NCBI GenBank assembly: GCA_035193785.1 | Contig: CP136572.1 | Location: forward strand, 3,349,376 to 3,413,375 | Direction: 5' to 3' | From: Planktothrix sp. GU0601_MAG3 | Lineage (GTDB): Bacteria; Cyanobacteriota; Cyanobacteriia; Cyanobacteriales; Microcoleaceae | Length of the DNA stretch: 64,000 nucleotides | Part shown: piece by piece, positions 2 to 58,209 of the stretch | Layout of the letters: each line of letters begins with the position of its first letter | Position numbering within the stretch: position 1 is the first letter of the stretch | Notes under the pieces: generated by a model | What the model was told of the DNA's origin: nothing | Databases searched by the model: none | Seen by the model: the letters and a program-made list of their open reading frames with translations, nothing else | Position numbers and translations under genes: made by a program

Positions 2-2228
2 GTTGAAGTTTCTCAAACCTTTGAAAATCCTTTTAAAGAACCTTTAGAAGCGATTTATGTATTCCCCCTCCCTGATCAAGCTGCGGTTGATCAGATGGTA
101 ATTAAAATTGGCGATCGCACGATAAAATCCCGCATTGAAACCCGGGAAGACGCCAAAGAAATCTATCAACGGGCTAAAGCTCAAGGTCGCACCACCGGGT
201 TATTAGAACAGGAAAGAGATAATATATTTACTCAGTCTGTAGCTAATATTCAACCGGGGGAACAAATATCCGTAACAATTCGCTATATTGATCAATTAAA
301 ATTTGAAGGAGGAAACTATGAATTTGTGTTTCCCATGGTGGTTGGCCCCCGCTATATTCCCGGTCAATTAATTAATAAAAATCAACCCAATACTAATCAA
401 GTTCCCGATGCGGATAGGATCACGCCTCCGATTATTGACCGAGAAACAAAATCCCCCCATAACATTCAAGTTGATCTGGAAATTGATGCTGGGGTTGCAA
501 TTGAAAATGTGCGTTCAACTTCCCATAAAATTATTACTAAACAGCAGGGAAATCGGATATTTGTTAGCTTAGATCAATCCGATCAAATTCCGAATAAAGA
601 TCTAATTCTAAGATATCAAATTTCAGGAGAAAATACCAGGGCAACGGTATTAACAGAAGCGAATCAACAGGGGGGACATTTTGCCGCCTATTTATTACCT
701 GCAATTAGTTATAATCCTAATCAAATTATTCCGAAAGATGTTATTTTTCTGATGGATACTTCCGGTTTCCCAAGAAGGAGAACCTCTGAAAAAATCTCAA
801 GAATTAATGAAACGATTTATTCAAGGATTAAATCCCGAAGATACCTTTAATATTATTGATTTTGCCAATAGCACTAATACCCTATCAGAAACTCCCTTAG
901 AAAATACCCCCGCTAACCGACAAAAAGCGATCAATTATATTAATCAATTAGAAGCCGATGGCGGGACGGAATTATTAAATGGAATCCAGACGGTTATGAA
1001 GTTTCCCACCCCCTCCAAAGGTCGCCTACGCAGTATTGTTTTGTTAACAGATGGATATATTGGAAATGATCAAGAAGTAATTGCAGAAGTACAAAATAAA
1101 CTGAAACCCGGAAATAGATTTTACGCCTTTGGGGTGGGCAGTTCTGTCAATCGTTTTTTACTCAATCGTTTAGGGGAAATTGGCCAGGGAACTACACAAA
1201 TTGTGCGTCAAGATGAACCCACAGAAACCGTCGTGGAAAACTTTTTTAAACAGATTAATAACCCCATTCTAACCGATCTTGAAATCAGTTGGCAAGGGGA
1301 AGGATTAAAACCCGAAATTTATCCGATCAGCTTATCAGATTTGTTTGATAATCAACCTTTAGTATTATTTGGACGTAAATTAGATCGTCGTAATGGCCTA
1401 TTAAAAATTACCGGAATAACGGCAAAAGGCGATCGCTATGAACAAACCTTACCTGTGAATTTTCCCGAGATAAATACTAAGGAATCTGGTAATATTGCCA
1501 TTGCTAAATTGTGGGGAAGGGCGAGAATTAAAGACCTGATGAATCAAATGTTTTCTGGGGAAACAAAATCAGGAGTTGAAGGAGTAACACGCACCGCTTT
1601 AGCCTATCAATTACTATCTGAATATACCGCCTTTGTCGCCGTGAGCGAAGAAGTTCGAGTCGATGCTAATGGAACTCGTAAAACCGTAGAAGTTCCCCTA
1701 GAATTACCGGAAGGGGTGAGTTATGACAGTATTTTTGACACACCCAAACCCGCCCAATTACCTTCAGCCCCTCCGATGAGTTTAGGGCGAACTCGTTCCG
1801 CATCTGGTTATAATAATTATGGCAGTCAAAGGAGTCCAGAAATTGCGCCGTCTCCCTCAATATTATCAGGATCAGATACATTATTGACAAGACTTGATAC
1901 ATCGAAAAATACGGCTTCTACTATTACCGTTGTTCAACTGACAGGAATTAGCGATCGCACCCTAATTAATGACCTAAACCGTTATTTACAAGGGTTGAAT
2001 TTAGCCGACGAAATCATTGGAAAAGTAACCTTTGAAATGATTATTGATCAAGGCAATGTCCAACGAGCAATTTTTGATGATGTTGACTCTAATCTGGATT
2101 TAGATAATAATATTAAACAGGCAATGATTATTGATCAAATTCGGCGATCGCTCCTAACTTGGCAACCTTCTACCCCCGTCAGTGGAAAACTCAAAATCAC
2201 CTTAGAATTAAAAGCCACAAAATCCTAA
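2..2228 (+). CDS. VIT (vault inter-alpha-trypsin) + von Willebrand factor A domain protein. The 5' end lies upstream of the window. The frame is broken at ~764-770 (ccGGTTTCcc), so the ORF track splits it into 95..850 and 807..2228
   Basis: The frame is open from position 2 (VEVSQTFENPFKEPLEAIYVFPLPDQAAVDQMVIKIGDR = VIT domain). Removing one T from GGTTTCC gives DTSGSQEGEPLKKSQELMKRF, a vWA MIDAS DxSGS motif, and joins the two ORFs. Confidence 0.7.
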
Positions 2229-2233
2229 ATTCC

Positions 2234-3248
2234 ATGAATCTTCCGACCTCAATTGTCAGCTTAAATCCGATTTATCCCCTGAGTATTGCGCCGATGATGG
2301 ATCGCACCGATCGCCATTATCGCTATTTTATGCGACAAATTACCCGGCGAACTTTGCTCTATACCGAAATGGTGACAACGGCGGCAATTTTACATGGAGA
2401 TCAGGAGCAATTATTAGGATTTTCCCCCGAAGAAAAACCCCTAGTATTACAGTTAGGAGGAGATAATCCAAATCATCTGGCAACCTGTGCTAAAATAGCC
2501 GAGGATCGGGGATATGATCAGGTTAATTTAAACGTAGGATGCCCCAGTGATCGGGTGCAAAATGGCAATTTTGGAGCCTGTTTAATGGCGCAACCGGAGT
2601 TAGTTGCTAAAGCCGTGGAAGCTATGCAAAAAGCAGTTAATATTCCGGTGACAATTAAACAGAGAATTGGTATTGATGACCAGGATAAATATGAAGATAT
2701 GGCGGATTTTGTCAGAATAGTTGCTAAGGCCGGATGTCAACATTTTACCATTCATGCTCGCAAGGCTTGGTTACAGGGTTTAAGCCCTAAAGAAAACCGG
2801 ACTATTCCCCCCTTAAGATATGAAGAAGTTCATCGTTTAAAACAAGAGTTTCCCCATCTATTTATTGAAATTAATGGCGGCTTTAAAACCTTAGCAGAAG
2901 TCAAAGATCAACTGCAATTTGTTGATGCTGTGATGCTCGGACGCGCCGCCTATGATCACCCCTATTTGTTCGCAATGGCGGATCAAGAAATCTATGGAGA
3001 AAAAACACCCCCCTTGACCCGTCAAGAAGTCATAGAAGCCATGTATCCTTATCTGGAATATTGGTTACAAAAAGGGGTGAAATTAAATAGTATGACCCGC
3101 CATTTTTTAGAGTTATTTGCCCAACAACCTGGAAACTAAAGCCTGGAAACGTTATATTAGTGAAAATGCCCATCTGACCCATGCTGGAGTAGAAGTTCTT
3201 GAGCGGGCATTGAAGCAGCTTCCCCAACCTTCAAACTCCTACTATTAA
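2234..3248 (+). CDS. dusA: tRNA-dihydrouridine synthase A. The frame is broken at ~3133-3138 (ctGGAAACta) and the ORF track stops at 3139
   Basis: APMMDRTDRHYRYF...LNVGCP...TIHARKA motifs of the Dus family. The start is at ATG 2234 (MNLPTS); the tracked start at 2159 overlaps the upstream gene. The third frame after 3139 continues as KAWKRYISENAHLTHAGVEVLERALKQL, which matches the DusA C-terminus. Confidence 0.8.
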
Positions 3249-4469: not shown

Positions 4470-6090
4470 GATTGACAATTCTATGTTCATATTAGAATTA
4501 ACTAACAGCACGGAGGTACGGAGTCCGACAATTAGACTTAGGGCAATGTACTATCTAAGTGTTGAAACAGTCTATACTACAAAAAGGTCGAAAAGGAAGT
4601 TTTTAATGCAACTAACGTACAAATACCGCCTTAAACCCACAAAAGCCCAAATTGTAACGATTGCTATTCACCTAGAAACTCTGTCGTAGGCAGTACAACT
4701 ACCGCTTAGGTGAAAGGTTTAGGTGGTGGGAGGCCACAAGGACACCCGTAAATGCCTGTCCTTTAACTGCGTCAATCATCCCAGTTGAGGAAATTTACAA
4801 AAATATTCCTCTAACAAGGATACAAACTAGAGACGGTAGAAAAAAGGATGAAAATGGCAATTCTATCACCAAAAAAGGTGATATTTTCTCAAACATTGAA
4901 GGCGGTTATGTGCAGTGGCAAACCCTACAGTTAGCCGACATAAAAAACACCAAAAAACTATTCCCTGAATACAAGAACTTGGATTCTCAAGTTTTGCAGG
5001 ATGTAGTGAATCGGGTGGAAACTTCCTTTTCAAATTTTACCACACCCGACAAAAATGGTAATCGTAGAGGTAAACCCAGATTCAAAGGTTTTCAATACTA
5101 CAAATCCTTGACTTACCCACAACTTGATAATTTAAACATTATCAAGGATAAGCAAAATCGGATTTGTATTGACCTGGCAAAAATAGGTCAAGTACCGATG
5201 GTTTTCCATCGCCCAATACCAACAGGATTCAAAGTTAAGACGGGAACAGTTATCAAAGAAGCCGATGGGTGGTATATTTCCTTAACCCTAGAAGACAAAA
5301 CAGTTCCTGTAACGGTTGCAGAAATTCAACCGACTGATGAAAACACTCTTGGTATTGATTTAGGAATCACAAATTATGTCTATTTATCCAATGGCGAAAG
5401 AATTGAAAATCCTAGATTCTTGAGGAAGTCGGCTGAAAAATTAGCCAGACTTCAGGTGAAACTAGCTAATAGAGTTAAGGGTTCTAAACCTTGGAGAATT
5501 ATCAAAGATAAAATCTCCAAACTTCACCAATTCATAGCTAGAGCTAGGCTGGATTTTCAATTCCAAACTGCACACAAATTATTGGAACAGTGTGACGTTC
5601 TAATTCTTGAAGATTTGAGGATCAAGAATCTAACTAGACTTGCCAAAATCAAAACTGATATTGAGCAGGGCAATTTGGTTTATTTACCTAATGGTCAATC
5701 GGCTAAAAGTGGTTTGAATAAATCAATACTTGATGCCGCTCATGGTCAATTTTCTATGGTTCTCAAATATGTGGCCTGGAAATTAGGCAAAAGCGTTCTA
5801 TTTGTTGATCCGAAAGGGACTTCTCAGCACTGTTGGAATTGCTTTAATAAAGTACCTAAAGAATTGTCAGACCGATGGCATTCTTGTCAATGTGGGGAGT
5901 CTTTGGAGCGAGACGAAAATTCAGCCAAACTCATCAAAAAGATTGGCTTAAACTACGAAGGTGGCGGGGGAACTCCGTCACTCAAAAAAGCTCTTGAACA
6001 AAGAGAAAAAGAAGCCTGTGGTCTAACGGTAATCCGTTGACCGCCAGGTTTCGTTCACGCTGACCTTGTAGATTAACTCTTTAATTCTTT
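4470..6090. mobile_element. IS200/IS605-family insertion element carrying tnpB only (no tnpA), inserted between ispD and the GT9 gene. The ends are approximate
   Basis: A TnpB ORF, local AT-rich flanks, and a position between two housekeeping genes. Left and right ends were not mapped. Confidence 0.5.
4606..6040 (+). pseudogene. tnpB: IS605 OrfB / TnpB RNA-guided nuclease, interrupted by one frameshift at ~4681-4686
   Basis: The N-terminus MQLTYKYRLKPTKAQ (4606) is typical of TnpB. After the stop at 4689 the next frame reads CRRQYNYRLGERFRWWEATRTPVNACP and continues into ORF 4910..6040, which has the C-terminal zinc-finger CWNC...CQCG. Confidence 0.75.
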
Positions 6091-7057: not shown

Positions 7058-7061
7058 ATTT

Positions 7062-7218: not shown

Positions 7219-8392
7219 ATGAATTATAATATTGAAGAAACAGTGATTGAACGCTACAAAGCGGGAGCCCAAACGGTACAACCTTCCCTCTGTTGTCCGG
7301 TGGAATATCAGGAAAATCAATATTTAGAAATTATTCCCCAGGAAATTATAGATAAAGACTATGGTTGTGGTGATCCCACCCGTTATGTTAACCCGGGGGA
7401 AACCGTGGTTGATTTAGGTTTCTGGGGCGGGTAAAAATTGTTATATGATCGCGCAAAAAGTCGGATCATCCGGTCAAGTTATCGGGGTAGATTTTAATGA
7501 TACAATGTTGGCTCTTTCCCGCAGCCATCAACCCGAAATAGCCCAAAAATTAGGCTATTTTAATACAAGTTTTGTTAAGGCAAAAATTCAGGATTTAGCC
7601 TTAGATTTAGATCAAGTGCAACGGTGGTTAACGGTTAATCCGATTCAATCAATTGAAGATCTGGGGAAATTTGAGTTAGAATGCGATCGCCTACGTCAAC
7701 AAAAGCCTTTAATTGCCGATAATAGTATTGATGTTGTTATTTCTAATTGTGTTTTAAATTTAGTTCGTCCCCAGGATAAGGATCAACTATTTCAAGAAAT
7801 TTATCGAGTTTTGAAACGGGGCGGACGGGCGGTTATTTCCGATATTGTTTGCGATCAAGATCCCACACCCAGAATTTTAAATGATCCCGATCTTTGGAGT
7901 GGTTGTATTGCTGGAGCTTTTCGGGAAAATGAGTTTTTAGAACGTTTTGAACAGGCCGGATTTTATGGGATTGAGATATTAGCCCGACAGGAAGAACCTT
8001 GGCAAGTGATTGATGGCATTGAGTTTCGTTCCCTAACAGTTTGTGCCTTTAAAGGCAAAGACGGCCCCTGTTTAGATGTAAACCAAGCCGTGATTTATAA
8101 AGGGCCATGGAAACAGGTAATGGACGATGACGGACATATTTTATATCGGGGGGAACGGATGGCAGTTTGTGATAAAACTTACCAAATTTATAATAACATA
8201 AACGGCCCCTATTATCAAGATATTTTAGGGATTTTACCCCATGAAACTATACCCCTAGAATCAGCCCCAGAATTCGATTGTAGACGGAATGCTATTCGTA
8301 AACCGGAAGAAACCAAGGGAGAGCATTATCACGTTACCATCACAAATTCCGATAATTCCTGTTGCGCTCCTGCGAGTTCTAGTTGTTGTTAA
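7219..8392 (+). CDS. arsM: arsenite S-adenosylmethionine methyltransferase (ArsM family). The frame is broken at ~7417-7423 (aGGTTTCTgg); the ORF track shows 7219..7434 and 7445..8392
   Basis: ERYKAGAQTV...CC N-terminal cysteine pair, SAM-binding motif VVDLG(S)GAGKNCY reconstituted by removing one T, DVVISNCVLNL, and a C-terminal Cys cluster. Confidence 0.7.
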
Positions 8393-9404: not shown

Positions 9405-10543
9405 ATTTACCGATAAAATTACTGAAATTTTAAATATATATTTCCCTGAACAGGGAAGTAGAATTTTAGATTATAGCGAGTTATTACAATATCTAAATAT
9501 TAAGACAAAAGCTGCCAATCGTGGTTCCAAGTCACGAGCAGGATTGGCAAATCATTATGCTATATATGTCTTGGTCGAGGACTATCTAAATAATGAGTTT
9601 CATATTAATGGCAATTATAGTGATTATGAAGGGGCAAAGTTTACAACACTTCTTCAGAGACAAAGAGAACTTCCATTTGGAAGTAAACTCCAAAATCATG
9701 CCCTAAATCATCGACTAAATGAAGAATTCAAAAAATACTTTCCAACATCATCCTATGTACCTATAATCAGAGATGCTAAAACCAATAAATATTGGATTAA
9801 TGAAAATCTATTGAAATGTTCTATTGATAATTCTCAAATAAATATTGCTAAAGCGATTAAAGATATTATTGATGCTTATATAGCGGCGCGAGGTCAAGCA
9901 TTCAATGAATTTATGATCTATTGTCAACAGATGATCGATATTCAGAAACAAGATCCTTCACAAGCGATTAAATTTATTAAAGATTTACTTAAACCTAATA
10001 TAGATGCAAGAGTTTTTGAAATTGTCAGCTACGCCATTTTGAAGGAATATTATGCAGACCAACAAATATATTGGGGTTGGTCACCCGATGAACTAAACGT
10101 GGAATATTTAGTTTTATATAAAACGGGTCGAACCAACGCAAATGATGGGGGTATAGACTTTGTAATGAAACCCCTTGGAAGATTTTTTCAAGTTACAGAA
10201 ACTCTTGATGCAGGTAAATATTTTCTCGATATTGATAAGGTTTCAGAGATATCCGATTACTTTTGTTGTTAAAACAGAACATACCGCTGAAACAATCTTA
10301 AACAAAATTAGAGAAAAAGCGACGGAAAAATATAATATTAAAGCCATTGTTAAAAAATATATGGAATCTGTGGAAGAAGTGATTAATATTCCCGAACTGA
10401 TGAGTCATTTTGATAGAGTTTTAGAACGGGGTAAAGGTGCGGCTGTGATTGAAGAAATCGTTTTACAAAGTCGTGTGGAATTTAATGTAGAAGCAGAGGA
10501 ACAAGATATTTTGATCAACGAAAATGGGGTTGAAGATGAGTAG
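9385..10543 (+). CDS. putative type II restriction endonuclease partnered with the upstream MTase. The frame is broken at ~10239-10244 (aaGGTTTCag); the ORF track shows 9385..10272 and 10175..10543
   Basis: Overlaps the MTase stop by 20 nt. It has no detectable family similarity, as is typical for restriction endonucleases. The sequence EIVSYAILKEY...DGGIDFVMK could form a PD-(D/E)xK-like core. Removing one T joins ...DIDKVQRYPITFVVKTEH. Confidence 0.45.
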
Positions 10544-10706: not shown

Positions 10707-13252
10707 AATGATTAATACTGTAACACCAGTTCCCAAAGGGATTGGCGTTCTATTAAAAGCACCTTTATCGGGGCATATTCTACCCATTGAACAGGTTTCC
10801 CGACCCCGTATTTGCTCAAAAAATGGTTGGGGATGGGATTTCTATTGACCCCGTGAGTCAGGTTTTAGTAGCGCCTTGTGATGGGGAAGTGATCCAACTG
10901 CATCCGTCCCATCATGCGGTGACATTAAAAACCCCTGAAGGGTTAGAAGTGTTGATGCACATTGGTTTAGATACGGTGACATTGCGGGGTCAAGGATTTA
11001 GCCCTAAAGTTAAAATGGGCGATCGCATTCAAACCGGCGATCCCTTAATCGAATTTGATCTGGATTATATAGCTCTAAATGCTAAAAGTTTGCTCACCCA
11101 AATTGTGATTACTAATAGTGATCAAGTGGCAAATTTTCAAGCTAGTTCGGGAGAGGTTATTGCAGGGGAAACAGTTATTTTAGAACTGATTTTCGCCCCA
11201 ACAGTAATTGAAAATAACCCAATTTCTGCCGAGACAATTACCTCGGATGAAATTATTATTCCTAATCCTACCGGACTCCACGCTAGACCTTCGGCCGTCT
11301 TAGCAAATTTAGCTAAAAAATATCAATCCAAAATTCGGTTACAACGGGGCGAGCAAGACGCCAATGTTAAGAGTGTGGTCGGGTTAATGGCCATGGAAGT
11401 GAATAACGGCGATCGGGTGGTTTTGGTGGCCCAGGGGCCAGATGCGGCCGAAGCGATCGCCGAACTCACCGAGGCCATGGTTTCCGGGTTAGGGGAAGAA
11501 GGCAGTCTGCCCATTTCCGCCCCCGCCAGCGTCGCCCAAGGAGAAATATCGAATCCGGCCCCCCGTCGGCGTTCGGACGATCCTAACGTGGTTTTAGGGG
11601 TAGCCGCATCCTCTGGAATAGCAGTTGGTCAAACCTTCCGGGTTAGGGAACAGGAAATTGAGGTGACGGAAAAGGCCGAAAACCCCAATACAGAACGGCG
11701 TAAGTTAGAAACGGCGATCGAACAGGCCCAATTAGAGGTAGAAGCGTTACGGGCCAATGTTCATGGCCAGGGCGATCCGAGTAAATCAGCTATTTTCGCC
11801 GCCCATCAAGAATTATTAGAAGATCCCGAATTAATTGAGATTGCCACCAGCACCATTGATAAGGGAAAAAGTGCCGCTTTTGCCTGGAAACAAGCCTTTA
11901 CAAATAGTGCAGCCCAACTCGCACAATTACAAAATGAGTTGTTATCCCAACGGGCGAATGATGTCCGAGATGTGGGGCAAAGGGTATTAAGAATTCTCAC
12001 CGGAGTTACCTTAACTGGGCCGATTTATCCTGAGAATACTATCTTAATTGCTGAGGATTTAACTCCTTCGGATATGGCAACCTTGGATCGATCAAAAGTG
12101 ATTGGATTCTGTACCGTTGCCGGGGGTTCGACCTCTCACGTTGCGATTTTAGCCCGTTCTATGGAAATTCCGGCGATCGCAGGAACGGAACCTCAAGTAT
12201 TAGATTTACCCGACGGCACACCTGTTATTTTAGATGGCAGTAAAGGTACATTAAAATTAAATCCCACGACGGCGGAAATGGAACGGGTTAAAACCCTACA
12301 AATTGAAATAGCTAAAAAACGGCAAACCGACTTAGCTAATGCCATGAAACCAGCCATCACCACCGATGGACACCGGATGGAAATTGTTGCCAATATTGGG
12401 GGCAAATCGGAGGCAGAAACTTCGGTGAAATTGGGAGGAGAAGGAGTCGGTTTATTGCGAACGGAATTTGTATTTATGGAGCGGACATCTGCCCCCACAG
12501 AAGACGAACAAACGGAAATATATAGTAGTATTGCCCGGGTTTTAGGGAAGGATAGACCGTTAATTATTCGGACGTTAGATGTAGGTGGAGATAAGCCCTT
12601 ACCCTATTTACCTATTCCCCATGAAGAAAACCCCTTTTTAGGAGAACGGGGAATCAGATTTGGCTTTGATCGTCCTGAACTTTTAAGAACCCAATTCCGC
12701 GCTATTTTAAGATCGGCGGAGGCGGGAACATTGCGAATTATGTTCCCGATGATTGCCCGATTAGAAGAAATTAGAATGGCAAAAGCTATGTTAGAAGAAG
12801 AACGGGAAAAGTTAAATCTTCCCCCGGTTTCCGTGGGCATTATGGTGGAAGTTCCCTCGGCGGCGGTGATGGCGGAACAATTTGCTAAAGAGGTGGATTT
12901 CTTCTCCATTGGAACTAATGATTTAACCCAATATACTTTAGCAATGGATCGGGGACATCCGAAACTTGCCCCCTATGTTGATGGGTTGAATCCGGCGGTT
13001 TTACGATTAATTGATTTAACGGTAAAAGGAGCAACTAAAGAGGGAAAATGGGTAGGGGTTTGTGGCGGAATTGCCAGCGACCCTCAAGCAATTCCTTTAT
13101 TAATTGGTTTGGGAGTGAAGGAATTAAGTGTTAGTGTTCCCAGTATTCCCACTATTAAGGCACAAATACGGGAATTAAGTTTAGTTGAGTGTCAAGAATT
13201 AGCCCAAAAAGCATTAAATTCAGAAACGGGGGCGGATGTGCGGGCACTTTAA
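10707..13252 (+). CDS. PTS multiphosphoryl transfer protein: EIIA(Glc)-HPr-Enzyme I fusion. The frame is broken at ~10794-10799 (caGGTTTCcc) and the ORF track starts at 10787
   Basis: EIIA-Glc domain (HAVTLKTPEGLEVLMHIGLDTV). HPr domain (GLHARPSAVLANLAKK). EI domain (GGSTSHVAILARSMEIPAIAGT; IGTNDLTQYTLAMDR). The N-terminus MINTVTPVPKG...IEQV(P)DPVFAQKMVGDG is restored by removing one T. Confidence 0.85.
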
Positions 13253-13253
13253 G

Positions 13254-15346: not shown

Positions 15347-16055
15347 TTAGATGGGTTCAAAATCCTTATTAAAATCGAGTTGATTGGCTTGGATTCCTGG
15401 TAAAAATGCAATTAGTTCTTCCAAACCAGATTTGTTAACAAAAATACCCGCTCCGCTTCCATACTCTGATAAGGTTAAATCCTTAAAGGTAATCACATCA
15501 TTTGTTTTATAAACAAAGTAATCTTCACCTACAGTAAAATCACTAATAAAGGCAAAATCCGTTAAACCTGCGGCTGTATAATAGGTGCTAGAATCAGAAC
15601 TCCCTAAATAAAATCCATCTAATCCTGCACCCCCGACTAAGGTATCAATTTCACCTGCTCCTGGAGTAGCCGAATTAACATCAATCCCCGCAATAAAATC
15701 ATCCCCAAGATCACCGGAAACATAATCATTTCCCCCACCACCCCCTAAAAGATCAATACCTTGACCTCCAAACAAAGAATCATTATCGTTTCCTCCAAAT
15801 AATAAATCTGAAACCTAAGTTACCAAAAACTTGATTTTTACCTAATTCTCCCAGCAGCACATCGTCCCCTTTCCCTCCAAATAGCAAATCATTCCCCGGA
15901 CTACCATAAATAACATCTGCTCCTAGATTGCCATTCATCGTATCATCGCCTTCAAGACCTTGCAGGGTGTCATTTCCCCCTAAGCCGTAAATTTCATCGT
16001 TTTCAATCAATCCAACTAGATTATCATCCGCTTCAGTTCCTAAAATTAAAGTCAT
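15347..16055 (-). CDS. hemolysin-type (RTX) calcium-binding repeat protein. The frame is broken at ~15808-15815; the ORF track shows 15783..16055 and 15347..15775
   Basis: GGxGxDxL nonapeptide repeats throughout (LGGNDTLQGLEGDDTMNGNLGADVIYGSPGNDLLFGG...). Removing one A from ctGAAACc joins ...GNLG SDLLFGGNDNDSLFGGQG. Confidence 0.7.
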
Positions 16056-19740: not shown

Positions 19741-20248
19741 TTAATATTGAGTCCGTTGGAAGGCTTCTTCCGGGGAAATATTACCGTAAATTACCGATAA
19801 AATTCCGGGTAAATAGTCATCCATCGTTGAAACACTGGTATAGATTAAATGTTTAATTAATGCCGGATTTAGAGCCGCATCTTCCGCATCTAAACTGGTT
19901 TTATATCGAAGTTCCCCATCTTGGAAATTCATTTCAAAATTTCCCACCACTGTCCCATAGTTGAGCAGGGTAATAAATGTCGCCATATTGTAGCGTTTAT
20001 ATTCAGGAAACCTTCACCGGACAAATGGAATAAACCGCAATTTGCCGTTCTTCTTCCCTAACAATTGTATAACAATCAAATCGGCCGTTTTTGCCCTCTA
20101 CACCTAATGCCAAGACTCGCCGATGTTCAATTTCTCTATAAACCCAACCATCTAGGGTCATAAAGTCAATGAGCACATCAAATACAGCCCGATCTGATGG
20201 GTATTCTTGAGAAAGTAATTCCGGGTTTTGTTCTGACACAGTAAACAT
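19741..20248 (-). CDS. YbjN-domain protein (putative sensory transduction regulator family). The frame is broken at ~20006-20011 (caGGAAACc); the ORF track shows two 81 aa halves
   Basis: Removing one A gives ...DCYTIVREEERQIAVYSICPVKVPEYKRYNMATFITLLNYGTVVGNFEMNFQDGELRYKT, a typical ~165 aa YbjN fold signature. Confidence 0.55.
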
Positions 20249-21122: not shown

Positions 21123-21573
21123 ATGTTTAAATATCCTATTTTAGCCTTAGCGACCCTGGTGGCGACTCTGGGTGTCGGGTTGAGTTCTCCGAGTATTGCT
21201 CAACTATTTGACCAGACATCATCACCATCGGACTCGAATGTACAAGCAAAAGTTGATCCGAGTCAATTGATTACGGTCAGACTGCGGAATAAAACCAATC
21301 AAACCCTAGTTTATGCCTTAGCCAATGATCATTCCCAATGGTTAGCACCTGGTAAAGTAAAACTGAAGAATTTTTAGTCAAAGTCGGAGGTCAACCCGGA
21401 GAAACCAGCACGATTTTCATTAATAAACCGGACAATACTTATCCCTTAATTTATAATTTCCAAGTTGTTCCTAAAAATATATTAACCGTTGAAATCAGTC
21501 CCACCAGTGCAGATAATCCCAGCCAAAAACGCACGATTTATATTGATGAACGAGGAAAAGTTTATTCTTTTTA
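21123..21573 (+). CDS. small secreted hypothetical protein. The frame is broken near 21370 (T5 run). The 3' end is partly duplicated downstream, beyond a MITE-like insertion
   Basis: N-terminal signal peptide MFKYPILALATLVATLGVGLSSPSIAQ. After the stop at 21377 an open frame continues VKVGGQPGETSTIF...IYIDERGKVYSF. A 50 bp copy of the tail (...AKNPRFILMNRGNFILL-like: agccaaaaacccacgatttatattgatgaatagggg) recurs at 21658-21710. Confidence 0.4.
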
Positions 21574-21587
21574 ATCAGTCATCAGTT

Positions 21588-21649
21588 GTAGGGGCGGGTT
21601 TCATCGAGATTTAGGTAATTAGCTCATATCTAACAGAACCCGCCCTTAC
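21588..21649. repeat. MITE-like hairpin element copy 2 (GTAGGGGCGGGTT...AACCCGCCCTTAC), inserted at the 3' end of the secreted-protein gene
   Basis: Same terminal inverted repeats as 13293..13356. Confidence 0.7.
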
Positions 21650-40426: not shown

Positions 40427-41511
40427 AAGATAAAACTAACTGAGCAAAATTATCAATTTGATCTGTAGCACTAAATTCTTCAAAGTAACTACGCACGGAG
40501 GGGGGAAACAGTTCAAAATTGAATTGTGTATCTCCATTGGCAATATCCGCCCAAAAATAACGCAGATGGGGAACTATTTTTTCTGCTTCTTGATGGGTTA
40601 ATTTTAACGGAGGATTAGTTAATAGTTTCATCATAAAGGGAAAAGAACGTTTCCCCCATCCATTCCCGGGATTTTAAGGGTAAATCCGGCCAATCTTCAA
40701 CGGCGGTAATCCGATGGGATTCTATTTTTAAAACAGGTTTTCCCTGAGAATTAGTATGAACATGAATCACGCGATAGGGATGGGGATAACTAACTAATGA
40801 TCCGGTTGTAATATCATAAATTCCTTGCCATTGGGCAATATCTTGAACGTGCAAATGTCCGGTAAAAACTAACCGCACCCCGGCTTGTTTTAAAATTTCT
40901 AAAAAACGCGGAGCATTTTCTAACATATATCGTCGCCCTAAAGGATTCGTCGCCTGTCCGGGTAAATGTTCAATCACATTATGATGAATCATCACGAAAA
41001 CTAATTTATTTTCGACTTGAGATAACACCTGTTCTAACCACTCTAACTGTTGTTCTTCTAAACAGCCTATTTGATTGCCGTGGCTATCAAAATGATTGGA
41101 ATTTAACCCAATTAATTGTAACCCGGGTAAAATTTCCTGGGTATAATCTAAACCTTGGTGATTTTCATAGCCAAAAGCTCGATAATATTGGGGAAATTCC
41201 TTTAATCCAATGGAATTTTTATGGCTTTCTAAGGCTGGAATATCATGGTTTCCAGGAATTACATAGACTGGATAGGGCAGTTGGCTTAATCGTTGACTTA
41301 ACCATTGATGATTTTCCCGTTCTCCATGTTGAGTTAAATCCCCGGGTAGGAGTAGAAAATCTAAATCTAATTCCCCTAAATGGTCTAATGCCAATTCTAA
41401 AGCCGGGATACTCACTTCCACTAAATGGAAACGATGGGGATGCTCCCATATTGTTTGAGGTAGGGCAATATGCAAGTCACTGACAATGGCAAATTTAAAA
41501 TTTAAGTTCAT
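40425..41511 (-). CDS. calcineurin-like metallophosphoesterase. The frame is broken at ~40648-40654 (aaCGTTTCCcc); the ORF track shows 40615..41511 and 40425..40634
   Basis: FAIVSDLHI...LPGDLTQHG...PGNHD...GHLH motifs. Removing one T joins ...WMGERSFPFMMKLLTNPPLKLTHQEAEK. Confidence 0.7.
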
Positions 41512-44905: not shown

Positions 44906-45809
44906 ATGACAGGACGTTTTAATCTGGTTAAGAATCTAATACCGATGGACAAAAAACTTGCTGTTTCTCTTTTGAGTCTTCTTTTCACCGTTAGTTTTCC
45001 CCTCTCGGGTTGGGCGGAAACCGTGTTAGAAAAAGTTAACCGGACAGGGGTATTGACGGCTGGGGTGAGGACGGATGCGGTTCCCTTTGGTTATACGGAC
45101 AAAAATAACACCTTGCAAGGGTATTCCGTTGATTTAATTAAACTTATTCAACAGCGCCTAGAAAAACAACTGAATAAACCGATTAAATTAGAATTAAAAA
45201 CCGTTGACTTAAAAAACAGATTTGATCAGGTAGAAACAGGCAAATTAGATATTGTCTGTGAGGCTACCAGTATCACTCCAGAACGGGAACAAAATGTTGA
45301 TTTTTCTACCCCCTATTTTACCAGTGGGATTCAACTTTTGGCAAGAGAAGCGGATGCAGAACGTTTAAACCCAACCCGCACTTCTGAAACCCAATTGCAA
45401 ACAATCAGGGAAAGTAATATTACCGTGGGATTCTTATTGGGAAACAACAACCGATGATCAATTTCGTCCCGTTTATCCTGAAGCGAAATGGCAAGTTATT
45501 GGCAGTCGTGCGGATGGAATTCGTCGCTTAAAAGCGGAAGAAATTGATTTAATTGCCAGTGATGGGATTCTCTTATTGGGCGAATTGTGGCGACAGGGAC
45601 TGGACTTTAAAGCCTTTAGTTTAGTACCTTCACAACCCCTAACCTTTGAAAATTACGGTTGTATTTTACCTAAAAATAGTTCTCAATGGGGAACTTTAGT
45701 TAATCAAACAATTACCAGTGAGCAAAATACCCAACTCTGGAATAAATGGTTTGATCCTAAAACCGGGCGTTTTCCTTATCAACGGTTTCAAACTAGCACA
45801 AAATCTTAA
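44906..45809 (+). CDS. ABC transporter substrate-binding protein, family 3 (polar amino acids). The frame is broken at ~45439-45446 (tGGGAAACa); the ORF track shows 44906..45457 and 45576..45809
   Basis: Signal peptide, then TGVLTAGVRTDAVPFGY...YSVDLIKLI...DIVCEATSITPER...DFSTPYF. Removing one A gives ...NITVGFLLGTTTDDQFRPVYPEAKWQVIGS...RRLKAEEIDLIASDGILLLGELWRQG, which runs into the second ORF. Confidence 0.7.
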
Positions 45810-50142: not shown

Positions 50143-51415
50143 GTGAAAATTCTAGTAGTGGGAAATGGGGGACGGGAAACACGCCATCGCTTGGACATTA
50201 CTCCAGTCGCCCCAGGTTGAAAAAGTATTTTGTACCCCGGGAAATGGCGGGACAGCTACCCTTAAAGGTTGTGAAAATTATTCGATTTCCGTAGAAAACT
50301 TTGAAGCTATCAAAAACTTAGTTCAAAATCAGGATATTTCCCTAGTGGTAGTCGGGCCAGAATTACCCCTGGCTTTGGGAATTACCGACTATTTACAACA
50401 ACATAATATTAAAGTATTCGGCCCCAACCAAGCCGGGGCACAACTCGAAGCCAGTAAAGCCTGGTCAAAAGCCTTCATGGAAGATGCCGGAATTCCCACG
50501 GCTAAGGCGGCCGTCTTTACCGATGCAGCCAGTGCTAAAGCCTATATTCAAACCGCCCCTATTGTCGTCAAAGCCGATGGGTTAGCAGCCGGAAAAGGTG
50601 TCACCGTTGCGACCACCGTAGAAATGGCCCATGAAGCTATAGATACCATTTTCGCCGGGGAATTTGGCCAGGATAACCTGCGGGTGGTGGTGGAGGACTT
50701 TCTAACCGGACAGGAAGTATCCGTACTCGCCCTAACAGACGGGTTAACTATTCGGCCCTTAGTTCCAGCCCAAGACCATAAACAGGTCGGAGAGGGGGAT
50801 ACTGGCCCCAACACGGGGGGAATGGGGGCTTATGCTCCCACCCCCATTCTCCCCCCGGAACTGCTGTCTCGCGTGCAACAGTCGGTCTTAGAACCCACGT
50901 TAGCCACCCTGCGTCAACGGGGTATTGACTATCGGGGAGTGGTCTACGCCGGGTTGATGATTTCCCCGGAAGGAGAAATTCAGGTATTGGAATTTAACTG
51001 TCGGTTTGGCGACCCCGAAACCCAAACGGTTCTCGCCCTGTTAGAAACCCCCCTAGAAGAAGTCCTACTCGCCTGTTGTGAACAGCGGCTAGAACAGGTT
51101 GCTTTAACCTGGAAATCGGGGGTTTCTGTGTGTGTGGTATTAGCTTCCGGGGGTTATCCGGGTTCCTACCAAAAAGGCAAAGTCATCACCGGAATAGAAG
51201 ATGCAGAAGCATCGGGGGCCATCGTATTCCATGGGGGAACTAAACTACAAGACGGCCAAATTCTCACCGACGGCGGACGAGTTTTAGGGGTTACGGCCAT
51301 TGGGTCTACTTTCCAAGAGGCCATCACCCAAACCTACAAAGCGGTTAACTATATCAATTTTGAAGGACTCTACTATCGTCGGGATATTGGTTGTCGGGTG
51401 ACGGTTGATGGTTAA
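50143..51415 (+). CDS. purD: phosphoribosylamine--glycine ligase. GTG start at 50143. The frame is broken at ~50174-50181 (cGGGAAACac) and the ORF track starts at 50165
   Basis: Removing one A gives [25 protein letters not shown], the canonical PurD N-terminus. ATP-grasp body with C-terminal ...GGRVLGVTA... Confidence 0.85.
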
Positions 51416-51716: not shown

Positions 51717-51795
51717 CTCCCCCTGCTCCCCCTGCTCCCCCTGCTCCCCCCACTCCCCCTGCTCCTCCACTCCCCCACTCCCCCGCTTTCCCCGT
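51717..51795. repeat. C-rich dodecamer repeat (CCCCTGCTCCCC units), same family as 25810..26070
   Basis: ccctgctccccctgctccccctgctccccccactccccctgctcctccactcccccactcccc. Confidence 0.75.
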
Positions 51796-51917
51796 CTGCT
51801 GTTACTATGTATAGTGTGTGTGTTAACAAAACTTAATGCTTCTGTTAGACACAACTCTGGGTCTCTATAGGCAAATATGGTATATGGACAAATCACCGAA
51901 TCATTCCCGTATCGCCG

Positions 51918-54086
51918 ATGAACACAGAGTTACCCCACAACCGTCAACCCCCAAATCCTCAACAAATGCTGAAACTCCTGAAACAAATAGGTGAGATTAT
52001 TGGCAGATGGTGGTCAGAGTTTACCCTGCAAACTCGGTTAATGGCGGGGGCGACCCTGGTAGTTTCTCTGTTGATGAGTAGTTTAACGTTTTGGGCCGTC
52101 AACACCATTCAGGAAGATGCTCGCATCAATGATACCCGTTACGGTCGAGATTTAGGATTACTATTAGCCGCCAATGTTTCCCCCCTAATTGCTGAAGAAA
52201 AACGGGATGAAGTCGCAAGGTTTTCCCGTCAATTTTACACAAGTACCTCCAGTATCCGTTATATGTTATATGCGGATCAAGATGGGGAAATTTATCTAGG
52301 TTTGCCCTTTTCTGATTCGGCGGTACAAAATTCCTTAACCCTGCGGCGGCGGATGCAATTACCTGATAATTTTTTAGCTAGTGTGCAGTCAGGAAATTTT
52401 GCCGATTTGCCGATGGTTAGACAACATTTAACCCCCGCCGGAGAGGTGACGGATGTTTTTGTTCCGATGATGCACAATGGGAATTATTTAGGGATTTTAG
52501 CAATTGGAATTAATCCTAATCCTACCGTTGTTGTATCATCGAATTTAACCCGGGATGTAACTTTAGCGGTGTTTGTTTCAATTTGGGTAATGGTAATTTT
52601 AGGGGCGGTATTTAATGCTTTAACTATTACTCAACCGATTAAAGAATTAGTTCAAGGAGTAAAAAATATTGCCATTGGAAACTTTAATCAACGGGTTGAT
52701 TTACCCTTTGGGGGAGAATTAGGGGAATTAATTTCCAGTTTCAACGAAATGGCAGAACGCCTAGAAAGCTTTGAAGAACAAAATATTGAAGAACTAACCG
52801 CCGAAAAAGCTAAGTTAGAAACCTTGGTTTCAACCATTGCCGATGGGGCGGTTTTAATTGATGCCGAACTGAATTTAATTTTAGTTAATCCCACCGCCCG
52901 ACGTCTATTTAGCTGGGAAGGGACAACGGTTATTGGCAATAATGTTCTGAATTTTTTACCGCCCATGGTGGTAGAAGAATTATCACAACCTTTACAAAAA
53001 ATTGCCAGTGGAACTTTAGATGGTGGAGAGTTTCGTTGTTCTTTGGGAGAACCAACAAATCGGACATTGCGGATTTTATTAACCACGGTTTTATTACATA
53101 AATCTCCGGGTGCTGAACCCCTTTGTCATAGCTGTATTCATGATAGGGATAATAGTTGTGAATTATCCGAACGTCCCCATGTTCAGGAGTGTACTTTATA
53201 TGACTATAATCCGATGTCAAATTCTCCTGGGGAGGAAAATTATCGGGAAAGTTTAAAAGGAATTGCAATGACAATTCAGGATATCACCCGTGAGGTCGAG
53301 TTAAATGATGCTAAGAGTCAGTTTATTAGTAATATCTCCCATGAGTTAAGAACACCATTATTTAATATAAAATCCTTTATTGAAACCCTCCATGATTATG
53401 GAGATGATTTAACCGAAGAACAGCGACAGGAGTTTTTAGCCACCGCCAACCATGAAACTGATCGTTTAACTCGTTTAGTCAATGATGTGTTAGATTTGTC
53501 TCGCTTAGAATCCTGTCGCATCTACAATTTTGAACCCGTTGATATGGCGCAAGTGGTAGAACAAACCTTGAGAACCTATCAACTAAATGCCAAGGATAAA
53601 GGAATTGAACTTAGTCGAGAAATAGAACCAGATTTACCTTTGGTGTTAGGACATTATGATTTATTATTGCAAGTCTTAACTAATTTAGTCGGAAATTCTC
53701 TGAAATTTACCACTTCGGGGGGACGGGTAATTATTCGAGTTTATCTACTAGAAGAAGAAGATTTCAAGAAAAATCAAGAAGTCGAAGAAATCGAAAAAGG
53801 AGGCTGGATTATTTCTCCTCCTCCTCCCCGTCCTATTGATTTACATTTAACGGGAAATCGACCTAAAACCCGTTATATTAGAACCGAAGTTTCCGATACG
53901 GGAACCGGAATTGCACCGGAAGACCAAGATGCTATTTTTGCTCGTTTCTTCCGGGTAGAAAATCGCGTTCATACCCTAGAAGGAACGGGATTAGGATTGT
54001 CTATTGTCAAAAATATTATTGAAAAACACCGAAGTCAAGTTCATTTAATTAGTGAGTTAGGCATCGGAAACCACCTTCTGGTTTGA
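51918..54086 (+). CDS. nblS: sensor histidine kinase NblS/Hik33 (DspA)-type: two TM segments, HAMP, PAS, HisKA, HATPase
   Basis: The N-terminal region LQTRLMAGATLVVSLLMSSLTFWAVNTIQEDARINDTRYGRDLGLLLAANVSPLIAE matches the conserved NblS periplasmic/TM region. H-box ISHELRTPL. G-box GTGLGLSIV. Confidence 0.7.
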   Translation: MNTELPHNRQPPNPQQMLKLLKQIGEIIGRWWSEFTLQTRLMAGATLVVSLLMSSLTFWAVNTIQEDARINDTRYGRDLGLLLAANVSPLIAEEKRDEVARFSRQFYTSTSSIRYMLYADQDGEIYLGLPFSDSAVQNSLTLRRRMQLPDNFLASVQSGNFADLPMVRQHLTPAGEVTDVFVPMMHNGNYLGILAIGINPNPTVVVSSNLTRDVTLAVFVSIWVMVILGAVFNALTITQPIKELVQGVKNIAIGNFNQRVDLPFGGELGELISSFNEMAERLESFEEQNIEELTAEKAKLETLVSTIADGAVLIDAELNLILVNPTARRLFSWEGTTVIGNNVLNFLPPMVVEELSQPLQKIASGTLDGGEFRCSLGEPTNRTLRILLTTVLLHKSPGAEPLCHSCIHDRDNSCELSERPHVQECTLYDYNPMSNSPGEENYRESLKGIAMTIQDITREVELNDAKSQFISNISHELRTPLFNIKSFIETLHDYGDDLTEEQRQEFLATANHETDRLTRLVNDVLDLSRLESCRIYNFEPVDMAQVVEQTLRTYQLNAKDKGIELSREIEPDLPLVLGHYDLLLQVLTNLVGNSLKFTTSGGRVIIRVYLLEEEDFKKNQEVEEIEKGGWIISPPPPRPIDLHLTGNRPKTRYIRTEVSDTGTGIAPEDQDAIFARFFRVENRVHTLEGTGLGLSIVKNIIEKHRSQVHLISELGIGNHLLV

Positions 54087-54578: not shown

Positions 54579-56523
54579 ATGGGAAAAACTCTATTTTTGC
54601 GTTGGTTAATGCCTGGTTTCGTCAGCTTTTTTATCCTGACCTCTCCCGCCAAAGCAGCCAGTCTGCAATCTTGGCAATTTGAAAGCTCTCAAAACCGCCT
54701 CAGCTTTACCACCGATGGGGGGGTACAACCCAAAGCTCAACTGCTCTCCAACCCCGCCCGATTAGTCATTGATTTGCCCGGAACCAGTTTAGGGGGCGTC
54801 AACCGTCAACAATTAATTGGGGGAGCAATTCGGGAAATTCGAGTCGGTCAGGTCGATAACCAAACCACAAGGATTGTGGTGGAATTGGTTGATGGTTATA
54901 CTCTCGATCCTCAAGGAGTACAATTTAGGGGGATTTCCCCGACCCAGTGGACGGTACAACTACCCTCGCCTCAAGCCGTCGGCACCCCGGCTCCTGTTCC
55001 GGTAACGGCCGCAACCCGTCCCGCCCTGTCTATACCCCAAACCCCGCCCGTCAGACCCCCCGCCCCAGCACCTGTTCCTTTGCCCAGGAGCCTGCCTCAA
55101 CAGACCGTTAATCGTTCTATTTCCCAGCAGCCTCAAACCACCTTAGCTCAGGTCGAGGTGCGGGATAATGGCATTGTGCTGCATACTACGGGCAAAATGG
55201 CTGATATTGAATTTAAACAAAGTCAAGATCGCAGTTGGATGACTTTGGATATTCTAGGTGCCATCTTAGCAGCCCGTTCAAACAGCACTGGAAAACAGGT
55301 GAACCGAGATGGGGTGACGGTTTCTCAAGTCACCCAACTCTCAAATAACCCCCCAGTGGTTCGGGTAACCATGAGTACCCCGCAACGAAATCAAAACTGG
55401 CAAGCCCGGTCATCGGCCGGAGGCGTGGCCGTTTGGCCCCAGGGAAGCACTCCCCCAGCCGTCCAATTATCGGGGGGATTTGCTCAAATTCGTTCCGTGG
55501 AAATCCGCAATCAACAACTTCTGATCCAAGCTGATCAGCCTCTGAACTATAGTAGCGGTTGGGATAATCAAACTCAGTCCTATAGTATTACCTTTTTCTC
55601 CGCAGCCTTGGCCGAAGGCGTTGCCTTACCCCAACGACAGGTGGGAAGTCCGATTATTTGGACGAGGGTACGTCGGGAAGATCCCCAAACCTTTACCCTA
55701 TTAATTAAACCGGCAACTCGCATTGAAGTGGGACAAATTAGCCAAGGCAGTCCTCAACAGCTTGCCTTAGCCTTTGTGGGAGAGGGCCTGGGAACCGGAA
55801 CTTCGGTTCGTCCCCCCTTTGCTACGGTTCCCACCCCTAACCCTAGACCCTTTCCCCCTAGAAACTAATCCTAATCCCTCACCTTTTCCCCCTCGTTCTA
55901 ATCCTCCTCAAACTAATATCAATCCCTTCCCCTTCCCACCCCGCACCGCTAACCCCCCCTCTAATAATCCGATTTCCAATGGTCGGGTGGTGGTAATTAT
56001 TGATCCTGGACATGGGGGAAGTGATGCGGGTGCTGTGGGGGTGGGAGGACTGCAAGAAAAAGATGTGGTATTCTCAATTTCTCAACAGGTGGCGCAGATT
56101 TTGCAGCAAAATGGAGTACAGGCGGTGATGACTCGTCTGGATGATCGCACCGTTGAGTTAGAACCCCGGGTAGACATGGCGAATCGGATAAATGCAACCT
56201 TGTTTGTGAGTATTCACGCCAATGCGGCCACAAATGCAGCGGCTAGTGGGATTGAAACCTATTACTACAGTAGCGGAGCTCGTCTGGCCCAATATGTTCA
56301 AAACAGTATGATTAGTAGTTTTTCCCAAATTCCGAACCGTGGTGTCAAGACCGCTCGTTTTTATGTACTGCGAAATACTTCTATGCCTTCGATATTAGTG
56401 GAAACGGGGTTTGTTACTAATAATTATGATGCCTATATGTTAGGCGATCCCTCTCAACGGGGACGCATGGCCCAAGCAATCGCCCAAGGGATTCTGCAAT
56501 ATTTAAGGGATAACCGATATTGA
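54579..56523 (+). CDS. N-acetylmuramoyl-L-alanine amidase (AmiC-like) with two N-terminal AMIN domains and a Pro-rich linker. The frame is broken at ~55857-55866 (ctaGAAACTaat); the ORF track shows 54507..55868 and 55774..56523
   Basis: Signal peptide MGKTLFLRWLMPGFVSFFILTSPAKA. AMIN repeats (RLSFTTDGGVQPKAQLLSNPARLVIDLPG). Amidase_3 domain VVIIDPGHGGSDAGAVG...VSIHANA...ETGFVTN. Removing one A reads through the PxP linker into the catalytic domain. Confidence 0.75.
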
Positions 56524-56747
56524 ACTACTCACCGCAATAGGTTGTGGTAGGGGCAATTCATTAATTTTCCCTGCCACAATGATTAAATTTCAAAAAATAT
56601 TACCCCTGTTCCTTGTTCCCTAGCGCATAGCGCTATAGCAAATTATTATATATCGGTTTTTGTGCCAATAAAAAACCCCACCTGACGAATCAGGCAGGGT
56701 CTTTAAAATTAACAATCTAAGCAGTGATTAGACTTCTAGGTAAAACC

Positions 56748-58209
56748 CTAGTCTAAGTCGGGCATAGACAGTACAGCTTCCGATTTCCGGTCAATACCTT
56801 TCTCAAAACCAGCCACCGCAGCCCGGGCGCGACCCGCGTGCCAAAGGTGACCAATCAAGAAGAAGAAGCCCACGATGAAGTGGAAACCAGCCAACCAAGC
56901 CCGGGGGTTAACATAGTTAAACCCTTGAGCTTCGGTAATGATTCCACCCACGGAGTTAATCGAACCGTTAGGAGCGTGGGTCATGTACTCAGAAGCGCGA
57001 CGAATTTGCCAAGGTTGGATATCGTTTTTCAGCTTGTTGAGGTCAAGACCGTTGGGGCCACGCAGAGGCTCTAACCAGGGGCCACGGAAATCCCAGAAGC
57101 GCATGGTTTCACCACCAAAGATGATTTCCCCTGTAGGAGAACGCATCAGGTATTTACCCAGACCCGTCGGGCCTTGGGCGGAACCGATATTGGCTCCCAG
57201 TTTTTGGTCACGGACTAAGAACACAAAGGACTGAGCCTGAGAAGATTCAGCGTTTGTGGGGCCGTAGAACTCGCTGGGATAAGCGGTATTATTGAACCAA
57301 ACATAGGAAGCGGCGATAAAGCCCATCAAGGACAGAGCGCCTAAACTGTAAGACAGATAAGCCTCTCCAGACCAGATGAAAGCCCGACGCGCCCAGCCAA
57401 AGGGTTTGGTTAGGATGTGCCAGATACCACCGGCAATGCAGATCAGACCAATCCAGATGTGACCGCCGATGATGTCTTCCATGTTGTCAACACCGATGAT
57501 CCAGCCTTCTCCCCCAAAAGGAGCCTTAGCCAAATAGCCAAAGATCGCGGCGGGGTTGAGAGTCGGATTGGCAATCACACGGACGTCGCCACCACCCGGG
57601 GCCCAAGTGTCATAGACACCCCCAAAGAACATGGCTTTGAACACTAACAGGAAAGCCCCCAGACCCAAGATAATCAGGTGATACCCGATAATATTGGTCA
57701 TTTGGTTTTTATCTTTCCAGTCATAACCAAAGAAAGAAGAATATTCTTCTAAAATTTCAGGGCCACGGACGGCATGATAAATACCGCCTAAACCCAAAAC
57801 CGCAGAGGAAATTAAGTGCAGAAACCCCAATCACGAAGTAGGGGAAGGTATCGATCACTTCACCACCAGGGCCCACACCCCATCCGAGGGTAGCCATGTG
57901 GGGGATCAGGATCAAACCTTGTTCATACATGGGCTTTTCAGGAACGAAGTGAGCCACTTCAAACAGGGTCATCGCCCCAGCCCAGAACACGATCAAACCA
58001 GCGTGAGCAACGTGAGCGCCCAGCAACTTACCAGACAAATTAATCAGACGGGCATTACCTGACCACCAGGCGAATCCAGTGGATTCTAGGTCACGGCCGC
58101 CGACATAAGAAGTATTAGAGAGCGTTACCACGCGGTAATACCTCCTCAGGGAAAATAAAGTTTTCGTGGGGTTGATCCGCAGGAGCCATCCAAGCCCGCA
58201 GACCTTCAT
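56748..58209 (-). CDS. psbC: photosystem II CP43 chlorophyll apoprotein. The frame is broken at ~57818-57830 (gcaGAAACCcc = GGGGTTTCTGC on the coding strand). The 5' end overlaps psbD as usual and the exact start codon is uncertain
   Basis: ...[37 protein letters not shown]... and the C-terminal ...[23 protein letters not shown] are near-identical to CP43. Removing one T joins [15 protein letters not shown]. Confidence 0.9.

Follow-up and report, generated by a model that had tools for sequence, protein, structure and literature searches.

The subject of this analysis is a window of 64,000 nucleotides (nt), the whole stretch of DNA that was analysed, from the metagenome-assembled genome (MAG) Planktothrix sp. 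GU0601_MAG3, in which reading frames are repeatedly broken. At 22 sites the sequence G-TT-C is written as G-TTT-C (20 sites) or G-TTTT-C (2 sites), on either strand. We consider it very likely that these frameshifts are organism- and motif-specific HiFi sequencing errors, in which the TT or AA of some GTTC/GAAC sequences has been over-counted by one or two bases. The surplus bases exist solely in this assembly, and two assemblies built from one read set disagree on their number. An earlier note on this DNA had preferred a motif-specific base-calling or assembly artefact, a reading now supported by the HiFi-only origin of the assembly, by the DNA of relatives, by a second (Logan) assembly, and by a surplus of coding sequences (CDS) with a lowered BUSCO score. 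Given this evidence, the deliberate or unknown sequence-level process that the note had also entertained is not needed.

The signature itself is highly regular. At each of the 19 firm sites of the earlier note, a G-T3/4-C or G-A3/4-C is present no more than a few bases from the coordinate given, and three additional sites (21599, 33345 and 54068) bring the total to 22. When the window was scanned mechanically for positions at which loss of one or two bases fuses two long open frames, the note's sites came up again, and some of the obligatory shift zones are very short: 11 nt (at 20008), 14 nt (4676) and 17 nt (7419). Zones where open reading frames (ORFs) merge are enriched for GTTTC above every other homopolymer context of the window (20/222; Fisher p = 4e-7), and GTTTC/GAAAC-type runs occupy just 1.3% of the window. 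When the window is aligned to relatives, every frame-changing surplus of 1-2 nt in coding DNA sits in the motif, the other small indels being intergenic. The low coverage of such runs, the enrichment of GTTTC and the confinement of indels to the motif together exclude chance.

Deleting the surplus base or bases yields single ORFs of the expected size, and the genes so mended include essential ones. The argument that essential genes are hit, so that true decay cannot be at work, holds: psbC, purD, ppc and lpxB are all restored on repair. The last of these lies outside the window, 756 bp upstream of it (L085 3150; L089 8438), where the gene is split and is mended when one T is deleted from GGTTTCC; as the 23rd site, it is an out-of-sample prediction borne out. 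A possible further site lies at window position -5998 (GGGTTTCTC), where an open frame of 282 nt grows to 510 nt on repair.

Reads, relatives and co-sequenced genomes

The fetched stretches of contig JAULAM010000015.1 (GCA_030545275.1) are 100% identical to the window, and two public records encode an intact flotillin protein of the window: this contig and a Logan contig of run SRR25183167. The genome comes from a Han River enrichment culture sequenced with PacBio Sequel II HiFi as the sole read type, assembled with hifiasm-meta and not polished with any other chemistry (PMC10720407). MAG3 is described as Planktothrix-like, with 5.1 Mb and 40.5% GC; its 5,913 CDS exceed the 4,275-4,328 of references of comparable size by about 1,600, and its BUSCO score of 95.9% is the only one below 100% among the six MAGs of the run (PMC10720407). 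The five co-sequenced MAGs, including a Flavobacterium with 32% GC, reach 100% BUSCO, with CDS counts in the normal range (PMC10720407). The symptoms, surplus CDS and lower BUSCO, are thus confined to the affected organism among these six. Extrapolated to the 5.1-Mb genome, 22 sites in 64 kb correspond to about 1,750 errors, a figure that matches the surplus of about 1,600 CDS.

Six Logan contigs offer another assembly of the HiFi reads: they are k-mer assemblies of the SRR25183167 run, cover about 31.7 kb and include 14 motif sites (13 in the window plus lpxB). Over this length Logan and the deposited sequence differ at exactly two places, 29328 and 55862, where Logan has one A more (four A). 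Further signs of unstable length appear at the ends of the Logan contigs. Contig L090 ends and L086 starts inside the A run at 3133-3135 (the former with GGAA, the latter with AAC), which implies that the reads include versions with two A as well as versions with at least three, and contig L092 likewise stops within the T run at 21599. Disagreement of the reads over run length is thus seen indirectly, through two differences and two breaks. These observations show that the surplus bases are already in the k-mers of the reads and that the length there is unstable. An assembler bug is thereby excluded, and a fixed genomic sequence is argued against.

The remaining Logan contig ends fall in tandem repeats, in repeated elements, or at 58208, where psbD and psbC overlap and an additional psbD copy may be the cause. 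Short tandem repeats lie at 7060-7130, 25960-26110, 33170-33210, 40380-40420 and 51700-51790, with units AGTTATC, GGGGGAGCA-like, TGTTCCC/TATTCCC, GGGTAAT and CCCCCTGCT; they are mostly intergenic, and one sits within a 1,220-amino-acid (aa) ORF (25379..29041). A GT microsatellite at 51816-51823 varies among relatives. One contig end, at 19692 (between GG and GTTTCCC), was considered as a heterogeneous site and rejected: it is the edge of a repeat of about 120 nt, the other copies of which also read GTTTC. This element (19601-19720) is 95% identical to an unrelated position in another Oscillatoriales MAG (L007 18149-18268) and partly to L005, and looks like a small dispersed repeat containing a genuine GGTTTCCC.

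The nearest genomes belong to Planktothrix sp. PCC 11201, with 99% identity at the protein level and about 92% at the DNA level, and to P. paucivesiculata PCC 9631; the DNA of both was aligned to the window over 20-41 kb. At 24023, 29328, 31333, 34311, 35937, 36797 and 40650 this DNA has GTTC/GAAC, and the same alignment exposed sites 33345 and 21599, which were missing from the earlier list. Metagenome relatives have GTTC/GAAC at 50177 and 55862 and exposed one more hidden site, 54068. Wherever relatives' DNA covers a site, the lesion is absent (GTTC/GAAC at 12/12 sites).

Affected sites and repaired proteins

The sites were placed by Pfam domain continuity after repair, by the obligatory shift zone, by the DNA of relatives or by the Logan contigs. 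The 22 sites of the window are the following.

765..769 (+): GTTTC, 1 extra T, in a VIT/vWA protein (95..2228 repaired); VWA_3 215-368 crosses the junction at aa 224
3132..3136 (-): GAAAC, 1 extra A, in dusA; Dus domain 43-351 crosses the junction at aa 325
4675..4679 (-): GAAAC, 1 extra A, in tnpB (IS605 OrfB); 14-nt zone 4676-4689; HTH_OrfB_IS605 42-85 crosses at aa 65
7418..7422 (+): GTTTC (GGTTTCTG), 1 extra T, in an arsM-like gene for a methyltransferase (MTase) dependent on S-adenosylmethionine (SAM); zone 7418-7434 (17 nt); Methyltransf_31 59-140 crosses at aa 67
10240..10244 (+): GTTTC, 1 extra T, in a putative restriction endonuclease adjoining a YhdJ-like MTase; the least certain placement
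10795..10799 (+): GTTTC, 1 extra T, in a fusion of the phosphotransferase system (PTS), EIIA-HPr-EI; PTS_EIIA_1 16-139 crosses the junction at aa 30
15810..15814 (-): GAAAC, 1 extra A, in an RTX-repeat protein; zone 15783-15814
20007..20011 (-): GAAAC, 1 extra A, in a YbjN-like protein; 11-nt zone 20003-20013; YbjN domain 24-149 crosses at aa 80
21598..21602 (+): GTTTC, 1 extra T, intergenic, absent from the earlier list; PCC 11201 has GGGTTC
24022..24027 (-): GAAAAC (CAGAAAACC), 2 extra A, in ppc; both relatives are 2 nt shorter; PEPcase 29-1034 in one stretch
29327..29331 (-): GAAAC (CAGAAACC), 1 extra A, in an NfeD-like protein; GAAC in both relatives
31332..31336 (-): GAAAC, 1 extra A, at the N-terminus of the second flotillin (Band_7) gene; GGAAC in both relatives
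33344..33348 (-): GAAAC, 1 extra A, at the C-terminus of the flavodiiron gene 33273..34999, absent from the earlier list; GAAC in PCC 11201; Flavin_Reduct 429-568 crosses at aa 551
34310..34314 (+): GTTTC, 1 extra T, in the flavodiiron gene 33273..34999; PCC 11201 is 1 nt shorter; 574 aa after repair
35936..35941 (-): GAAAAC (CAGAAAACC), 2 extra A, in the second flavodiiron gene, 35149..36882; CAGAACC in PCC 11201; Flavodoxin_1 268-398 crosses at aa 315
36796..36800 (-): GAAAC, 1 extra A, at the N-terminus of the second flavodiiron gene; GGGAACG in PCC 11201
40649..40653 (+): GTTTC, 1 extra T, in a metallophosphoesterase; PCC 11201 is 1 nt shorter
45441..45445 (-): GAAAC, 1 extra A, in a solute-binding protein; SBP_bac_3 50-282 crosses the junction at aa 179
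50176..50180 (-): GAAAC, 1 extra A, in purD; GAGAAC in the metagenome relative L096; GARS_N covers 1-100 of 100 profile positions
54067..54071 (-): GAAAC, 1 extra A, in the C-terminal tail of the histidine kinase 51918..54086, absent from the earlier list; GGAAC in three metagenome relatives
55861..55865 (-): GAAAC, 1 extra A, in the linker of amiC; the relative L095 is 1 nt shorter
57821..57825 (-): GAAAC (CAGAAACC), 1 extra A, in psbC; PSII domain 44-483 in one stretch after repair

The claim that deletion of the extra T restores the proteins is borne out by full-length ORFs, by Pfam continuity and by structure alignments of CP43 and PurD. Pfam domains run uninterrupted through 11 junctions after repair. 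Domains continuous through the junction are those of vWA, Dus, TnpB, SAM methyltransferase, PTS-EIIA, YbjN, PEPcase, Flavin_Reduct, Flavodoxin_1, SBP_bac_3, GARS_N and PSII. Repaired lengths are 1,034 aa for PEP carboxylase, 574 and 576 aa for the flavodiiron proteins, 423 aa for PurD and 486 aa for the psbC ORF. Repaired PurD aligns continuously with the E. coli PurD structure through GNGGREHA, and repaired CP43 aligns with solved structures with no break across aa 129. The histidine kinase site, at 54068, lies 18 nt before the stop codon, and its repaired tail reads ...GIGTTFWFDL. At the vWA site (765..769) the run length is equal in Logan contig L090.

Where a zone holds several copies of the motif, the protein guided the choice among them. 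In the RTX gene the register of the nonapeptide repeats is kept by deletion at 15811 and destroyed by deletion at the motif copy at 15789. The endonuclease zone (10169-10272) holds three copies in a protein without a family match, and the junction is protein-like only when the base is taken out at 10241; this placement is the most plausible of three options, though unproven.

Several details of the earlier note need correction. It had called for deletion of two T at three sites, which is right for 24023 and 35937 and wrong for 37586, where the frame is intact; of three four-A CAGAAACC-type runs (CAGAAAACC) on the plus strand, two are shifts. Nor is every GTTTC in an ORF-overlap zone an error. 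Those at 13479 and 59631 were tried as errors and rejected as genuine sequence: NCBIfam shows the unedited ORFs of EIIBC and Ycf4 to be full-length, and the "repaired" versions lose their N-terminal match. Candidate 42077, for which neither a homologue nor a domain was found, stands outside the 22 counted sites. The small ORF at 21370, said to break at a T5 run, is in fact broken by a 5-bp tandem duplication at 21357. This duplication (GTAAA GTAAA, 21352-21361) interrupts a secreted-looking ORF of 148 aa (21123..21574); it is absent from PCC 11201 and PCC 9631 and present in the Logan contig, and removal of one copy makes the ORF collinear with its PCC 9631 orthologue. It is either a true strain variant or another, consistent read error.

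Other features of the affected loci were observed along the way. The tandem flavodiiron genes (33273-36882) carry two spurious insertions each. A complete-looking sugar PTS occupies 10708-15253, comprising the 847-aa EIIA-HPr-EI fusion and a 610-aa EIIBC of glucose type (TIGR02002, E = 2e-197); PTS transporters are uncommon in cyanobacteria. An Rfam match to IsrR, the isiA antisense RNA, lies antisense to psbC (57533-57719, plus strand, 169 bits); it is probably explained by the homology of isiA and psbC and is no proof of an antisense RNA gene.

Origin of the surplus base

Of the roughly 529 GTTC/GAAC sites in the repaired window, 22 (4%) are affected, in keeping with the note's remark that only a subset is hit. 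Which sites are hit depends on their flanks. A G at position -1 is strongly favoured (14/21 sites vs 23% in the background; p = 5e-5) and a G at +1 never occurs among affected sites. Penetrance is 11% at GGTTC, 2% at HGTTC and 5/7 at GGTTCTG/CAGAACC, the last context including both +2 sites as well as 29328, one of the two sites with an extra Logan base. An extended or bipartite (Type I/IIB-like) motif was rejected, there being no conserved position within ±12 nt beyond the G at -1 and the absent G at +1. Both strands are affected, the sense orientation is GTTC at 11 sites and GAAC at 10, and the codon phases are 0 and 1; a codon-phase bias was also rejected, because the finding of 0/21 sites in phase 2 does not differ significantly from background (10% in phase 2; p = 0.24). 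A pattern spread over both strands, both orientations and two phases has no biological logic, which counts for an artefact.

Flank dependence of this kind is what polymerase context effects predict, and the insertions could accordingly be a context error of Sequel II chemistry or of the circular consensus sequencing (CCS) model at GGTTC-type sequence, independent of modification and expected in any organism. We give this explanation a small chance. The five other MAGs of the same single-molecule real-time (SMRT) run, the Flavobacterium included, are free of the symptoms, and HiFi is widely used, yet literature searches gave no such motif error.

We favour instead an error specific to the DNA of this organism. 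What the data show is that Sequel II HiFi reads over-count the TT/AA dinucleotide at a subset of GTTC/GAAC by one or two bases, in one organism of the run and to a degree that varies with the flanks; hifiasm-meta passed the majority read length into an unpolished consensus. The over-count would arise at the level of the polymerase or of the CCS consensus, and a DNA modification at GAAC/GTTC, which is probably the cause, would perturb incorporation of the adjoining T or A, a disturbance that the consensus model would take for an extra base. The likeliest routes may be repeated sampling of the cognate nucleotide or lengthened pulses taken as two bases. More speculatively, the modification might be phosphorothioation of the Dnd type (GpsAAC/GpsTTC), as a phosphorothioate on both strands would push the passes of both strands one way.

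We regard it as a tentative and rather doubtful proposal that the insertion footprints map Dnd-type phosphorothioation, or an oxidised derivative of it, with a strong preference for CAGAACC/GGTTCTG, and that this causes the HiFi over-count. GAAC/GTTC is the canonical Dnd motif, with reported occupancy from <5% to ~17% (PMC7461809, PMC6459556), and dndBCDE clusters are reported in Microcoleus, a filamentous cyanobacterium (PMC8546630), and in the order Cyanobacteriales (PMC8569181). The likeness to the Dnd systems of E. coli B7A and of Salmonella enterica Cerro 87 extends to an identical 4-bp core that is complementary on both strands, biases in flanking sequence, an altered kinetics of the SMRT polymerase at phosphorothioate, and the presence of dnd clusters in related cyanobacteria. 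The 4-bp core without a strict extended consensus is found at 22/22 sites, which are error footprints and not measured modification. The affected fraction of 4% resembles the reported occupancy of phosphorothioate, and a threshold effect of the consensus caller would fit equally. In contrast to the known systems, the present case is one of sequence footprints, its CAGAACC flank preference differs from that reported for B7A, and the literature searched describes no HiFi miscalls linked to phosphorothioate.

A number of points weigh against a modification-driven HiFi error. How the extra base is created is something that we infer, and literature searches gave no report of insertions in HiFi data at either GAAC/GTTC or phosphorothioate positions. 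The kinetic signals of phosphorothioate in SMRT sequencing are weaker than those of N6-methyladenine (m6A) (PMC6459556, PMC9521924). No dnd, ssp or other modification gene was seen among the genes and Pfam matches listed for ~73 kb of the contig, and the fetched loci contain no ORF with SGGKDS or DGQHR. Finally, Logan mostly has the same inserted length as hifiasm-meta, so that the wrong length dominates the reads at most sites.

The suggestion that the motif could be tied to an MTase in the window found no support, as neither in-window enzyme points to GAAC/GTTC specificity: ORF 8511-9404 is a YhdJ-type adenine (m6A) MTase (NF008572, E = 4e-145) and ORF 62301-63434 a Dcm-type C5 MTase, and these do not explain the motif. 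The target of YhdJ we take to be ATGCAT (the AvaIII/NsiI site), for which the YhdJ-type enzyme of the window is probably specific. ATGCAT occurs 0 times in 64 kb vs ~20 expected from base composition, which suggests active restriction avoidance. The stretch 8511-10543 is likely a Type II restriction-modification pair, formed by this MTase and the adjoining 385-aa protein without a family match. GATC methylation is common in cyanobacteria. Because 0/299 GATC sites carry a shift, ordinary m6A is probably not enough to cause insertions, assuming that GATC is methylated here.

The extra bases might also be physically present in the library molecules, if motif-specific nicks or lesions, such as oxidised phosphorothioate linkages or the products of an endogenous nicking enzyme, were filled in during SMRTbell damage repair. 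The heterogeneous run length in the reads would agree with this, as would the proneness of phosphorothioate linkages to oxidative breakage and phosphonate formation (PMC6435447). There is however no evidence for such a repair outcome, and since the inserted base is always that of the dinucleotide, on either strand, over-counting of pulses is the simpler account; we judge fill-in to be improbable.

Far less probable still are real mutations, whether by massive pseudogenisation or at a hypermutable motif. It is true that the deposited sequence and most Logan contigs share the inserted length, and that genomes under reductive evolution are likewise rich in split ORFs. Yet here the lesions are all of one kind and confined to one motif, and at a density of roughly one in 3 kb they strike single-copy essential genes (psbC, purD, ppc, lpxB), core photosynthesis and purine genes among them. 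The flanking sequence is perfectly conserved and otherwise free of decay, relatives with 92% identical DNA lack every insertion, run length varies within one read set and the symptoms are confined to MAG3. Programmed recoding, in which ribosomal frameshifting or transcriptional slippage would restore the frame at GTTTC, has next to no likelihood: a recurrent short T/A run is indeed common to the interrupted frames, but at 3-4 nt it is far too short, with no X XXY YYZ heptamer, long A/T run or stimulatory element, and the shifts occur in two codon phases and both sense orientations, as +1 and as +2 surpluses, at an intergenic site (21599) too, with heterogeneous length and no conservation in relatives.

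Consequences for this genome and its genus

As a genomic feature the frameshift pattern is not real, and its residual interest is methodological, together with the lead on modification. Eighteen genes of the window appear broken, and in a 19th, that of the histidine kinase, the C-terminal tail is corrupted; these should be read only after base deletion, and no claim of a pseudogene, of recoding or of a gene fragment should rest on them. As the earlier note said, the insertion pattern dictates how the gene calls are to be read; the frameshifts have to be mended first. Beyond the window, an unpolished HiFi MAG probably carrying ~1,600-1,750 false frameshifts is in GenBank, and its split proteins have already spread into protein collections.

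The case resembles other systematic consensus errors of long reads, such as homopolymer indels and the methylation-motif errors of nanopore assemblies, in that spurious indels break up genes, raise the CDS count and depress BUSCO scores, are tied to a short motif and to the DNA of one organism, and can be removed by polishing or by homology. Motif errors of nanopore sequencing are mostly substitutions at Dam/Dcm-type sites. Here, unlike in the known cases, the reads are PacBio HiFi, the run is of two bases, the change is always an insertion and the motif is GTTC/GAAC. HiFi is usually taken as free of motif-specific error, to which this genome is an organism-specific exception, and one that can be detected from the assembled letters by an excess of ORF-restoring GTTTC sites.

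If phosphorothioate were the cause, HiFi-only genomes of organisms that bear it would be systematically corrupted, with >1,000 false frameshifts each, and the epigenomes of phosphorothioate, or of a similar modification, would be readable from the indel footprints in existing HiFi assemblies. Should a modification be confirmed as the cause, the footprints would point to a DNA modification directed at GAAC/GTTC in a genus of bloom-forming cyanobacteria.

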